A stretch of DNA of 64,000 nucleotides from Candidatus Pacearchaeota archaeon. Its GTDB lineage: Archaea; Nanobdellota; Nanobdellia; Pacearchaeales; GW2011-AR1. The stretch spans positions 124,093 through 188,092 of the forward strand of contig JBNLCO010000010.1 of assembly GCA_050303855.1 (NCBI GenBank), given 5' to 3'. Position numbers and translations under genes: made by a program. Under the pieces are notes generated by a model. The model searched no databases. It was not told where the DNA came from and worked only from the letters and a program-made list of their open reading frames with translations. Positions 50,543 to 53,379 of the stretch are shown here, one piece after another; the stretch's first letter is position 1; each line of letters begins with the position of its first letter.

Positions 50543-51432
50543 CTTGAACCTCCGTGTTTTTTATGGAAGTACCACTTAAGTATTGAAACATTGGTGATCC
50601 AAGTGTTTATCATATCAAAGAATAATCCTATTACAAGGATTGTGAAAATTTGAGTTAAAATTTCTGAGAAAGATGAGGCAACAAACAGAGCTATTGCCAT
50701 AGCAAAAAATGAAGTTAAAGTCATAGTCATACCGGTCTTAAAAGCCCCAGATATTCTTTCGTTTAGAGAGCCTTCGTGACGTTTCAATACTCTGTTTGTA
50801 AGAAGGATATCCGTATCCACAGAATAACCAATAAGCATAAGCAAAGCAATTATTCCTGCGCTAGACATCTTTATTCCAAAGAGATTTATTGCAACAAGGG
50901 TTAACAGGATATCTGCAAAAGCAGAAATTATAACTGCTCCTGAAGGAATTAGATCTTTGAAAATTATGAAAACAACTATTGCCATAAATAAGAATGCTAC
51001 AAGAACTGCAATTATCAATTGCTTATAGAAACTTTCACCAAAAGAAGATCCTGTTGAAATTATGTCTGAATTCTCTCCAGATATTAATTCGTAACCCAAG
51101 AATGTCTCTAATTCGGCTTTAGCTGTGTCAACATCTGAAGTAGTTTCTATTGTGAGGGCTATTTGCTCTTGAGTTAGAAGATCAGAGATTTCTCTTACTG
51201 CGAGATTATCCAATTTTGGTTCTAGAGCTAAGGTTAATTCGGAAGCGGATATTTTATCATAAACAGTTATTGAAGTTCCCCCTGTAAGGGAGATATCTTT
51301 CTCAAAGAATGCTCCGTGGTTTGAATTATAAACTCCAAGATAAACTAGTGAAAATAGGATTAAAACTGCAGGGATAATTAGCAAATATTTGTAAGATTTA
51401 TCATGCCAGTGTTTTTTTGTTGATTCTTCCAT
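50539..51432 (-). CDS. secF: protein-export membrane protein SecF
   Basis: 297 aa, ..DISLTGGTSITV.. motif. Overlaps the secD start. Confidence 0.8.
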   Translation of the reverse strand: MEESTKKHWHDKSYKYLLIIPAVLILFSLVYLGVYNSNHGAFFEKDISLTGGTSITVYDKISASELTLALEPKLDNLAVREISDLLTQEQIALTIETTSDVDTAKAELETFLGYELISGENSDIISTGSSFGESFYKQLIIAVLVAFLFMAIVVFIIFKDLIPSGAVIISAFADILLTLVAINLFGIKMSSAGIIALLMLIGYSVDTDILLTNRVLKRHEGSLNERISGAFKTGMTMTLTSFFAMAIALFVASSFSEILTQIFTILVIGLFFDMINTWITNVSILKWYFHKKHGGSR

Positions 51433-51443
51433 TTGAAATTCTA

Positions 51444-51531
51444 TGCGCGGACCGGGGATCGAACCCGGATCAACTGGTCTCTTCAGACAACCTGTGGAAG
51501 CCAGTTATTCTAACCATTAAACTATCCACGC
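51444..51531 (-). tRNA. tRNA-Gly (anticodon UCC) with a 16-nt canonical intron between positions 37/38
   Basis: Reverse-complement folds into a cloverleaf. Acceptor GCGUGGA/UCCGCGC, discriminator A. T-arm CCGGG-UUCGAUC-CCCGG. Anticodon stem ACUGG/CCAGU enclosing CUUCCA|CAGGUUGUCUGAAGAG|A. Confidence 0.8.
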
Positions 51532-51891
51532 CTATTTATCTATATTGTGGGTGTGTTTTAAAGGTTTTTGCTTTTCCCAATGTAATTTTCTATGGCAGTT
51601 GGCACAAAGCACTTTGCATTTTTTAATCTCATGAAGTATCCTCTTAATTGAATATCCTTCGGAAACCATCTTGGCAACTTCCATTTCTTTATCATCCCTT
51701 TGGTGATGAAAATCTATTGTGGCGGGATGGTTTTCTTTGCAAATTGTGCAACCCAAACTATCCTTATAGTTGCGAAACCAGGATTTTATTTCTTTTTTCC
51801 TTCTTGCCACGTGCTTTATCTCTGATTCCTTATTTTTGCTGTACCAATTTTTCCGATACTCCAATCTTTTTTTACGGTCTTTGAAGGGCAT
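51532..51891 (-). CDS. HNH endonuclease-family protein (small, standalone)
   Basis: ..CTICKENHPATIDFHHQRDDKE...KVLCANCHRKLH is an HNH zinc-finger nuclease motif. The gene abuts tRNA-Gly and lies between two tRNA genes. Confidence 0.55.
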   Translation of the reverse strand: MPFKDRKKRLEYRKNWYSKNKESEIKHVARRKKEIKSWFRNYKDSLGCTICKENHPATIDFHHQRDDKEMEVAKMVSEGYSIKRILHEIKKCKVLCANCHRKLHWEKQKPLKHTHNIDK

Positions 51892-51945
51892 ATAAATTTC
51901 AGGATTTAAACCATTATAAAAGGTTGTAACCTCTTAAGAATAAAA

Positions 51946-52021
51946 CGCCCGAGACAGGATTTGAACCTGCGACCTATTCCTTAGGAGGGAATCGCTCTAA
52001 TCCAGGCTGAGCTACCCGGGC
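51946..52021 (-). tRNA. tRNA-Arg (anticodon CCU)
   Basis: 76-nt cloverleaf on minus strand. Acceptor GCCCGGG/CUCGGGC. Anticodon loop CUCCUAA. T-arm GCAGG-UUCAAAU-CCUGU. Confidence 0.85.
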
Positions 52022-52104
52022 AATTGTTCTCAGAACAAGAAAAGGAGATTTAAATGTTATGCAAGGAACTAAATCTTTAATAATAAGGCTTTAGATGCGA
52101 AATA

Positions 52105-52920
52105 ATGGTTACAAAGAACATCATATCTGACTATGAAATTGAAAAAGGTAGGAAAGTTCTTGAAAACCACCTTGTTTACCCTTTAACAAAAGAAGGAGCA
52201 TTTGAATCAGGATTGTGGTGCATAAGCAGTCAGGCAACACCTTGGGAAATGGCCTCCAACATAATCTATAAACTTAGGGAAAATTCTTATCCAGGAGACC
52301 CTCATGCAAAAAAGAAGATTTCTCGGATGGAAACTCTTAAGGATGTAGGAGAAGTTAACAAGTCTGCTAAAGAAGCGGGATGGAGGTTTGCAAAGGGAAA
52401 TAGATTCAACGATTTTATTAATTATTTCTCAAAAGAGGAAATATCTTCAAAGGACTGGCACTATGAAGTTAGAGATGCCAATAATGAATATAGAAAACAA
52501 ATTGTGAAGGATGTTGGGTGGCTAGGCTTGAAGACTTTCTCATTTTGGAACATCTGTTTGGGAGGAAAAGATTTTCTTGCATTAGATGTATGGATTCTAA
52601 AAGATCTTAAGAAATTAGGTTTAGATATAAAAGAGGAATATGTTGTAGCTCAGAGTAGGAATGTGGGAAAACAAAAAGTAAGGAAGACCCCTAGGGAAAA
52701 AGAATATTGTAAGGTAGAAAACGAAGCAAGAGAATTATTTTCTAAAGATAAAAGATTCCTACAAGAAGATGGAAAGGTCGACCTTGCTTTAGTAGATAGT
52801 GTTTTATGGTGGAGAGGTGCAAACAGAGGTACTTTGTATCAGCAGTCTCTTTTTGAAGAAGAAGTACTTTTAGAAATGCCTTATCAAAATATGCGGAGAA
52901 CAGGATTCGAACCTGCGTAG
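52105..52920 (+). CDS. Ogg2-type 8-oxoguanine DNA glycosylase-like (HhH-GPD) protein with ~130-aa N-terminal extension
   Basis: ..VKDVGWLGLKTFSFWNICLGGKDFLALDVWILKDL.. parallels the archaeal Ogg2 catalytic-Lys and helix-hairpin-helix region. The last ~10 codons overlap tRNA-Leu on the other strand. Confidence 0.45.
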   Translation: MVTKNIISDYEIEKGRKVLENHLVYPLTKEGAFESGLWCISSQATPWEMASNIIYKLRENSYPGDPHAKKKISRMETLKDVGEVNKSAKEAGWRFAKGNRFNDFINYFSKEEISSKDWHYEVRDANNEYRKQIVKDVGWLGLKTFSFWNICLGGKDFLALDVWILKDLKKLGLDIKEEYVVAQSRNVGKQKVRKTPREKEYCKVENEARELFSKDKRFLQEDGKVDLALVDSVLWWRGANRGTLYQQSLFEEEVLLEMPYQNMRRTGFEPA

Positions 52921-52975
52921 GCACTAAGCCATAAGAGCCTTAATCTTACCCATTTGACCACTCTGGCATCTCCGC
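52892..52975 (-). tRNA. tRNA-Leu (class II, long variable arm); anticodon reads AAG by hand-folding
   Basis: 84 nt. Acceptor GCGGAGA/UCUCCGC, discriminator A. T-loop UUCGAAU. Anticodon stem UAAGA/UCUUA, loop UUAAGGC. Confidence 0.7.
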
Positions 52976-53075
52976 ATAAGCACAGAAAAACAAACTTCAG
53001 ACCCTATAAAAAAGTTTGGAATGTGGTCTGTAAAGACATAAATGTTTTTAAAATTGGGAGGGTTTGATAAAACCA

Positions 53076-53243: not shown

Positions 53244-53264
53244 GCCCTTATTTCTTGAAAAATT

Positions 53265-53379
53265 AAGACGGCCATAGTAGCGATGGTTCCACCTGGTCTC
53301 TTTCCGAACCCAGAAGTTAAGCATCCTACGTTGTTACCGGTACTGTCCTGCAAGATGGGAAAGTAACAAGCTGTCCTAC
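53265..53379 (+). rRNA. rrf: 5S ribosomal RNA (unlinked copy)
   Basis: GACGGCCAUAGUAGCG...CCUGGUCUCUUUCCGAACCCAGAAGUUAAGC...GUACUGUCCUGCAAGAUGGGAAAGU...GCUGUC matches the archaeal 5S consensus. Helix I pairing between 53267-72 and 53370-75. Confidence 0.8.

Follow-up and report, generated by a model that had tools for sequence, protein, structure and literature searches.

A free-standing HNH nuclease gene between two tRNA genes of a Pacearchaeotal chromosome, probably of the homing-endonuclease type

Background

Why a small nuclease gene should stand between two tRNA genes of an archaeal chromosome, and whether it serves the host or itself, is the question raised by a locus from a Candidatus Pacearchaeota archaeon. 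In a stretch of 64,000 nucleotides (contig JBNLCO010000010.1, positions 124,093 to 188,092; hereafter the window) an open reading frame (ORF) encoding an HNH (His-Me finger) nuclease is enclosed by genes for tRNA-Arg(CCU) and tRNA-Gly(UCC) (Table 1). An original prediction, made from the sequence of the window, had noted the HNH zinc-finger motif of the 119-amino acid (aa) product and had weighed a homing-endonuclease or mobile-element remnant against a domesticated nuclease, leaning towards the latter and giving RNA processing as an example of its role. Comparison of the locus with related chromosomes and with cellular and viral homologues of the protein leads us to read the gene, taken as a whole, as probably a free-standing gene of the homing-endonuclease type, and its best reading is not that of a housekeeping or RNA-processing nuclease.

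Results

The gene shows presence and absence at one and the same site. Among the closest genomic homologues, all those from Pacearchaeota-type genomes (L001-L019 and L022; L-numbers are the labels of the compared loci) adjoin secF-secD, and this sample is biased towards carriers of the HNH gene. A second sample was therefore taken from metagenome contigs found by alignment of SecF, without reference to the HNH gene, and the 80 best SecF-anchored loci, with 51-70 % SecF identity to the window, were scored. Their common backbone is tRNA-Leu, tRNA-Arg(CCT), tRNA-Gly(TCC), secF and secD. Seven of the 80 carry the HNH gene (L095, L097, L099, L107, L117, L146 and L153), and in all six carriers with both tRNA genes on the contig it lies between tRNA-Arg and tRNA-Gly; the contig of L153 starts within the HNH gene, and tRNA-Gly follows shortly downstream. 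Another 38 loci possess both tRNA genes and lack the HNH gene, their Arg-Gly spacer measuring 35-60 bp in 15 cases. The comparison of tRNA-Arg/tRNA-Gly spacing in relatives, which had been proposed as a check of the locus, thus finds the insert in seven of 45 informative loci and an HNH-free site in 38. The longer Arg-Gly spacers of HNH-free loci contained no degenerate HNH gene detectable with the family hidden Markov model (HMM) in six-frame translations, and an Rfam scan of these longer spacers gave no match. On a neighbour-joining tree of SecF (all trees are simple distance trees) carriers and non-carriers interleave: the window is a neighbour of the HNH-free L086, the carrier L001 of the HNH-free L094, the carrier L107 of the HNH-free L103, and the carriers L003/L146 fall within the HNH-free L112 and L119. 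This patchy presence at the Arg-Gly spacer rules out that the gene is conserved in all relatives.

The association with tRNA genes extends over the family at large. Our cellular sample consists of the 80 best genomic homologues; a tRNA gene is found no more than 60 bp away from 62 of them and no more than 150 bp away from 69. By our own estimate, without a computed control, the chance level is below 1 % for a genome with about 50 tRNA genes. The homologues belong to Pacearchaeota, Halobacteriales, Acidobacteriota (Pyrinomonadaceae among them), Saccharibacteria, Chloroflexota, Myxococcota, Planctomycetota and further groups. No fewer than 12 different tRNAs adjoin them and the partner is clade-specific, being Gly-UCC and Arg-CCU in Pacearchaeota, Gln-CUG in haloarchaea and bacteria of the candidate phyla radiation, Trp or Met in Pyrinomonadaceae, and Pro-UGG in Myxococcota and in a small number of further bacterial loci. 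The tRNA gene may lie downstream on the same strand, converge on the HNH gene or lie upstream of it, and the link therefore appears to exist at the level of DNA rather than through co-transcription. A tRNA gene follows within about 110 nt downstream in 27 of some 30 Pacearchaeal HNH genes, counting intron-bearing tRNAs from Rfam that ARAGORN missed. No description of a tRNA-linked HNH family on cellular chromosomes was found in the literature searched, of which our coverage was incomplete. Tandem HNH paralogues are common beside tRNA genes. Two or three tandem copies by one tRNA gene, or two-domain fusions of about 200 aa, occur in many bacterial and haloarchaeal relatives (L048, L050, L061, L065-L068, L070, L074, L075 and L077; proteins P0107-P0256), and most of the top 150 matches in the representative library have two matched stretches.

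The same family was found in 284 phage records. Its members stand between tRNA genes in Haloarcula virus HCTV-16 (gp59), HGTV-1 (gp264), Pseudomonas phage PaoP5 (gp050) and Mycobacterium phage Myrna (gp144), which share 39-48 % identity with the window protein by tblastn (E = 7e-14 to 6e-23) and resemble the window locus in layout, a few bases separating their ORF ends from tRNA genes; to our knowledge none of these relatives in viral arrays has been characterised biochemically. Other members belong to T7-like phages, whose records show no tRNA annotation under the match. Of 80 homologues on IMG/VR contigs, 22 have a tRNA gene no more than 60 bp away and often stand in arrays that count up to 25 tRNAs; 55 of the 80 have no tRNA within 2.5 kb.

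That the ORF is more than a chance reading frame follows from the 105 homologues of its product found at E <= 0.001 and from non-synonymous change far below the synonymous. The protein carries the motif C48-x2-C51, H55, H62-H63, C92, C96-x2-C99-H100-x3-H104; the pattern string originally proposed for it was approximate and had picked out the right thing. In an alignment of 35 homologues C48, C51, H62, H63, K68, E88, C92, C96, N98, C99 and H100 are invariant and H104 nearly so. Present among these are the H-N-H set of His-Me finger nucleases (H63, with H62, then N98 and H100), the two zinc CxxC pairs (C48-x2-C51 and C96-x2-C99) and C92, and to judge from the alignment the invariant set is the classical signature of a zinc-containing HNH nuclease. 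PHROG families of HNH endonucleases match the protein over almost its full length (E = 1.7e-24 and 7.7e-22), and a search with the family profile reached the HNH core of McrA (6ghc, E = 2.6e-4). Scans of the ORF against Pfam, PF01844 included, and NCBIfam gave no HNH match; PF01844 was found below threshold in eight of 35 family members, with a best E of 0.0038. A confident AlphaFold model, with a predicted local distance difference test (pLDDT) score of 90.5, has a basic helical hairpin at the N-terminal end (residues 6-44) followed by two short strands and a helix, as would be expected for a beta-beta-alpha-metal fold with a putative zinc-bound core (residues 59-108). Because of the PHROG profiles, the profile match to McrA and the invariant motif, we accept the protein as an HNH nuclease on sequence grounds. 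The family is very large: at E <= 1e-10 it numbers 22,984 representatives of clusters at 50 % identity, and many of these are fusions of two domains.

The anatomy of the inserted cassette was derived by comparing occupied with empty Arg-Gly sites. The insert of about 410 bp consists of an upstream region with a putative promoter and one ORF, and leaves the tRNA-Gly promoter intact. In the window the upstream region measures 53 nt from the 3′ end of tRNA-Arg(CCU) to the ATG of the HNH gene, and a spacing of 50-54 nt is also found in L001, L003, L005, L007, L016, L097, L107, L117 and L146. At occupied sites tRNA-Arg, or in rearranged loci some other gene, is succeeded by a conserved element, about 50 nt long, with the consensus aGGgaTTACAA-N-TTTATAA-GTTTGgAAaCC, and ATGCC comes 8-10 nt later. 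At empty sites a conserved box gtAAACTTTA(A/TT)AAAc is located 0-15 nt past the 3′ end of tRNA-Arg, with tRNA-Gly about 24 nt further on. The first part of the occupied-site element, GAGGTTACAA in the window, is present in most loci compared and absent from empty sites, and is possibly a B recognition element or the site of a regulator. A TATA-like box, TTTTATAA, is found at the same spacing upstream of most Pacearchaeal homologues compared, including those at loci without an upstream tRNA-Arg, and is the putative promoter of the HNH gene itself. Since it is centred about 27 nt before the ATG, the HNH mRNA is probably leaderless or near-leaderless.

The third part of the element resembles the T-arm of a tRNA gene. 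In the window it reads GGTTTAAATCC, which matches the T-arm consensus GGTTCRAATCC at 10 of 11 positions and was found as direct repeat D3 with the T-arm of tRNA-Arg. A T-arm-like box occurs at -21/-22 in 19 of 23 loci, and the mean number of mismatches over all 23 loci is 2.8, against 4.9 for shuffles and 4.8 for control tRNA-Gly promoters. Because one element is shared across the 23 loci these figures amount to a single observation, for which the probability by chance is roughly a few percent. The T-arm likeness of this promoter box is thus a suggestive lead on the target of the enzyme.

At its other end the cassette runs into the promoter of tRNA-Gly. A second TATA-like box, CTTTAAAA, lies inside the 3′ end of the HNH ORF; boxes of this kind, with their start at -30 to -34, occur in 40 of 45 related loci, carriers and non-carriers of the HNH gene alike, and from position and sequence we infer that the box is the archaeal promoter for tRNA-Gly. 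The HNH ORF of most homologues ends in ...AAT AAA CTT TAA, with the stop codon inside this TATA box. In the window a one-base difference of frame makes the same DNA read K-P-L-K (AAA CCT TTA AAA), and the ORF runs nine codons further, through the tRNA-Gly promoter, to a TAG that directly abuts the first base of tRNA-Gly(UCC). The resulting nine-codon C-terminal tail is common to two database relatives. Neither target-site duplications nor terminal inverted repeats were convincing, only short repeats at chance level being present in positions 51350-52150, and no integrase-sized ORF lies between tRNA-Arg and tRNA-Gly, the wider window not having been scanned for integrases. Within these bounds the earlier remarks that neither direct repeats nor an integrase accompany the gene are correct.

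Pairs of HNH genes differ by a synonymous proportion (pS) of 0.6-0.9 and a non-synonymous proportion (pN) of 0.14-0.27; because synonymous sites are saturated in all available pairs, it is the comparison of pN with pS, and not dN/dS, that is meaningful. The HNH protein is under purifying selection. Its identities correlate only moderately with those of SecD, at a Mantel r of 0.49, compared with 0.79 for SecF and SecD, the HNH protein being short. Some pairs of loci are discordant, and in both directions: L010 and L097 have an identity of 0.72 in HNH and 0.56 in SecD, L011 and L015 of 0.53 in HNH and 0.72 in SecD. These deviations exceed three sampling standard deviations (by our own estimate, about 0.05 for a 105-residue alignment) and point to some horizontal movement or independent acquisition. 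Decay is seen in L117, where the HNH gene is frameshifted, and in L095, where it is divergent and the motif Asn is replaced by Ser.

Table 1 Features of the HNH locus and its surroundings, in positions of the window
Feature	Position	Strand	Basis or remarks
tRNA-Gly(UCC), 72 nt plus 16-nt intron at 37/38	51444..51531	(-)	Intron ~51479-51494; Rfam 57.5 bits; intron-aware ARAGORN
HNH (His-Me finger) nuclease gene, 119 aa	51532..51891	(-)	ORF, ATG to TAG
TATA-like box CTTTAAAA, putative tRNA-Gly promoter	51556..51563	(-)	25-32 nt upstream of the tRNA; codons K-P-L-K at the 3′ end of the HNH ORF
T-arm-like box GGTTTAAATCC	51902..51912	(-)	Lies 11-21 nt before the ATG, with the TATA box on one side and the presumed transcription start on the other
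TATA-like box TTTTATAA, putative own promoter of the HNH gene	51915..51922	(-)	Spans -31 to -24 from the ATG
Conserved upstream box GAGGTTACAA (consensus aGGgaTTACAA), travels with the HNH gene	51924..51933	(-)	Sequence comparison
tRNA-Arg(CCU)	51945..52022	(-)	ARAGORN; Rfam 63.3 bits
271-aa ORF called Ogg2-like	52105-52920	(+)	Pfam Ogg-HhH E = 0.019; NCBIfam E = 0.0024
tRNA-Leu(AAG)	52891-52976	(-)	ARAGORN, Rfam
5S rRNA	53264-53379	(+)	ARAGORN/Rfam scans

The flanking tRNA-Gly and tRNA-Arg genes and the nearby tRNA-Leu and 5S genes that had been described around the HNH gene were all recovered with ARAGORN and Rfam. A default ARAGORN run named the tRNA-Gly(UCC) gene 'tRNA-???', and its identity was resolved by Rfam and by intron-aware ARAGORN. 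The tRNA cluster has secF-secD on one side and rpoN on the other. The ORF that had been taken for an Ogg2-like glycosylase is present; its identity as a glycosylase is weakly supported, both matches lying far below the curated cut-offs. It sits between tRNA-Arg and tRNA-Leu, overlapping the latter by 30 nt at its 3′ end, and had no counterpart at the same position in about 100 related loci. In those loci tRNA-Leu and tRNA-Arg are often a few nt apart, and elsewhere the Leu-Arg gap holds a gene resembling NAD-dependent epimerases (L005, L012 and L016) or small membrane ORFs (L001). From the variety of genes in this gap it follows that the whole tRNA cluster is an insertion hot spot.

A different insert, of about 95-140 nt, is found in the Arg-Gly spacer of some HNH-free loci (L086:98-238, L114:2643-2797, L118:2628-2874 and L127:1772-1949). 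It starts with GGATTTGAAnCC, the reverse complement of the T-loop region, and at its end repeats the final ~19 nt of the neighbouring tRNA-Arg; two tandem copies are present in L118, and Rfam gave no match to the insert. By its sequence it looks like a partial duplication of a tRNA 3′ end at the junction used by the HNH cassette. Moreover the module of tRNA-Arg, HNH gene and tRNA-Gly is inverted relative to secF in about one third of the HNH loci (L095, L097, L099, L117, L146, L002, L003, L004, L008, L010 and L018). The module is also inverted in the HNH-free loci L112 and L119, which are the closest SecF relatives of the inverted carrier locus L003/L146, and in L143 tRNA-Arg is the only inverted part. 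Such inversions may have arisen as a by-product of DNA breaks at the locus, or may simply be due to common descent.

Introns of 16-50 nt are frequent in tRNA-Gly(UCC) (L001-L019 and L085-L164), where default ARAGORN misses the gene or names it '???', Trp or SeC. In raw counts they occur in about 17 of 25 loci with the HNH gene and about 14 of 42 without it. The idea that introns protect the tRNA gene against the nuclease was rejected, as contrasts between sister pairs on the SecF tree gave two for, two against and the rest tied. Inspection by eye found no obvious position of tRNA-Arg or tRNA-Gly that separates alleles with the HNH gene from those without. The secF homologue of L005 (L005:4472-5326) has an in-frame stop, either an assembly error or the mark of a pseudogene, which distorted SecF comparisons with that locus.

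Discussion

Several features expected of a free-standing homing endonuclease come together at this locus, namely presence and absence at the same site, an intergenic position, no integrase between the tRNA genes and no terminal repeats. Under such a reading the HNH enzyme would nick or cut cassette-free alleles near the junction of the tRNA-Arg 3′ end and the tRNA-Gly promoter, or within a tRNA gene, and repair from a cassette-bearing copy would then insert the HNH gene, that is, homing by gene conversion without a step of transposition. The conserved sequence of tRNA genes would serve as both target and homology, which we propose as the reason why relatives are found at many tRNA genes in viruses and cells. 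Once established in a lineage the gene would be inherited vertically for long periods. The endonuclease I-TevI represses its own promoter, and by analogy the T-arm-like box could be an operator for self-repression by the HNH enzyme; a real T-arm likeness would point to an enzyme that binds T-arm DNA and acts as repressor of its own promoter.

Free-standing endonuclease genes among tRNA genes are best known from phages. SegB of phage T4 is a free-standing GIY-YIG homing endonuclease whose gene belongs to the T4 tRNA cluster; it cuts within a tRNA gene of phage T2 and favours the inheritance of its own region. When RNA processing matures the adjacent tRNA-Arg, the segB transcript is severed after its last sense codon and before its stop codon (PMC2330249). 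A study of 2026 found SegB homologues to be statistically associated with tRNAs across phages, without preference for an isotype, and SegB to be able to amplify tRNA segments (PMC13096335). The window gene resembles segB in being a free-standing nuclease gene between tRNA genes, in an ORF end set tight against the next tRNA (the HNH stop codon abutting tRNA-Gly), and in the tRNA association of its family, the target of SegB lying in a tRNA gene of an endonuclease-free relative. It differs in fold, HNH as opposed to GIY-YIG, and in residing on a cellular chromosome and not in a phage genome; furthermore the activity and homing of SegB are experimental, whereas those of the window protein are inferred.

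Phage T5 has several HNH endonuclease genes interspersed with tRNA genes, some of them overlapping, in an arrangement similar to that of the window. F-TflI and F-TflII as well as F-TflIV (hegA, hegC and hegD) are site-specific endonucleases according to Akulenko et al. 2004, as that work is cited in PMC2330249 and PMC5714182. The T5 proteins have 165-227 aa and extra DNA-binding domains, compared with 119 aa in the window, and no homology to hegA, hegC, hegD, hegE or hegF was detected with the family HMM (E >= 0.1 against all). As the T5 proteins are not detectably of the same family, the resemblance is one of life-style and they are analogues rather than close homologues. In mycobacterial tRNA arrays, too, no coding sequences are more widespread than HNH genes, and the literature treats HNH genes in tRNA arrays as homing endonucleases that shape the arrays (PMC5966550, PMC6582537). 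These mycobacterial genes, here compared by setting alone, and the viral ones belong to multi-tRNA arrays on phages, plasmids and acquired islands, while the window gene stands between apparently ordinary chromosomal tRNA genes, beside secDF, in a DPANN archaeon.

A number of observations weigh against homing. Selection on the HNH protein, as judged by pN against pS, is similar to that on SecF and SecD in the same genome pairs, and in the clade of L004, L008, L010 and L018 the divergence of HNH matches that of SecD and SecF, which indicates long vertical inheritance and would fit a role beneficial to the host as well. Intact genes make up 24 of the 26 HNH copies examined, more than a simple cycle of invasion, decay and loss predicts. 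No pair of occupied and empty alleles with more than 85 % DNA identity was found; look-ups with the exact SecF of the window and with its closest HNH relative returned the same strain with the same layout and one distant relative. For want of such a pair the exact junction and any co-conversion tract are not visible, and an ancient gene that was lost many times could in principle account for the patchiness. A viral vector was sought that might carry the gene between DPANN cells, and the best viral homologue was 54 % identical. Fold searches with the HNH protein gave nothing significant.

The same evidence of constraint is what favours a domesticated nuclease with a host role at the tRNA locus, be it in gene conversion or repair, in guarding an integration hot spot or in acting on RNA. 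Besides the low pN, the co-divergence with SecD and SecF and the near absence of broken copies, a conserved promoter, tight coupling to tRNA-Gly and retention in very small DPANN genomes speak for it, and it is because selection is as strong as on housekeeping genes that we treat domestication as unlikely and do not dismiss it more firmly. However, the gene is absent from 38 of 45 informative relatives with the same tRNA cluster and is scattered on the SecF tree, its nearest annotated relatives are phage HNH endonucleases, and the side and orientation of the tRNA differ between clades, which argues against any role that depends on co-transcription. HNH enzymes are DNases, and the archaeal enzymes of tRNA processing, RNase P, tRNase Z and EndA, are unrelated to HNH. 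The leaning towards a domesticated nuclease, possibly one of RNA processing, is therefore not upheld, the gene being neither conserved in all relatives nor similar to any housekeeping nuclease family. The homing-endonuclease part of the competing suggestion is supported by the patchy distribution, the interleaving on the tree, the phage relatives and the frameshift in L117, but the gene is not a remnant, because it is intact and under purifying selection.

For the same reason we consider it improbable that a homing gene invaded once in the distant past, ceased to move or cut, and is now an inactive relic being lost lineage by lineage. The patchy distribution without a close occupied/empty allele pair, the damaged copies in L117 and L095 and the vertical co-divergence in one clade would suit such a history. 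A relic would nevertheless have decayed, and what is seen are invariant catalytic and zinc residues and strong selection in genes whose synonymous sites are saturated; the similarity of HNH also disagrees with that of SecD in both directions. Very improbable, too, is an enzyme of restriction or defence akin to McrA (of type IV, with modified DNA as its target) that lies by tRNA genes through chance. PADLOC did report mREase_IV (E = 2.4e-4), and McrA of E. coli, a type IV restriction enzyme, is the nearest solved structure by sequence and shares the core C-x-LC-x-NCH-x3-H. Both the PADLOC and the McrA match are limited to roughly 20-80 residues of HNH core, though, with only about 20 residues aligned to McrA, and McrA is a protein of 277 aa (287 residues in the 6ghc chain) with a different biology and an N-terminal domain that binds 5-methylcytosine. 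The window protein has no such modified-DNA-binding domain, and chance does not explain a nearby tRNA gene in 69 of 80 cellular homologues. We regard as scarcely credible the proposal that the gene marks the edge of a larger integrated element or provirus with its attachment site in a tRNA gene. It is true that tRNA genes are common sites of integration and that variable genes fill the neighbouring Leu-Arg gap in relatives, yet the insert is bounded by the same two tRNA genes that lie 35-60 bp apart in 15 of 38 HNH-free loci, both flanks (RpoN, 5S and tRNA-Leu; secF and secD) are syntenic with empty loci, and neither an integrase-sized ORF between the tRNAs nor att-like repeats were found.

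The preferred reading, a homing-endonuclease-type gene, may be carried further. The family could be specialised on tRNA genes across Archaea, Bacteria and viruses, recognising T-arm DNA (GGTTCRAATCC), hopping between isotypes and between viral arrays and host genes, and repressing itself; it would then be kept, not as a purely selfish gene, for remodelling or protecting tRNA loci, where inversions, duplications and insertions occur at the same junction. In this full form we think the proposal quite unlikely, and offer it as a conjecture.

Conclusions

Free-standing homing endonucleases in phage tRNA clusters are known from T4 SegB, the T5 HNH enzymes and the arrays of mycobacteriophages, and the window HNH gene leaves current concepts unchanged. 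Less familiar are such a life-style between apparently ordinary tRNA genes on the chromosome of a DPANN archaeon with a small genome, and how tightly and widely the family is linked to tRNA genes in cellular genomes. A stop codon placed inside a TATA box, with the tRNA promoter left undisturbed, is a neat example of an element that spares its host. The family to which the gene belongs, very large and missed by Pfam and NCBIfam, is a good candidate for a family of nucleases that target tRNA genes.

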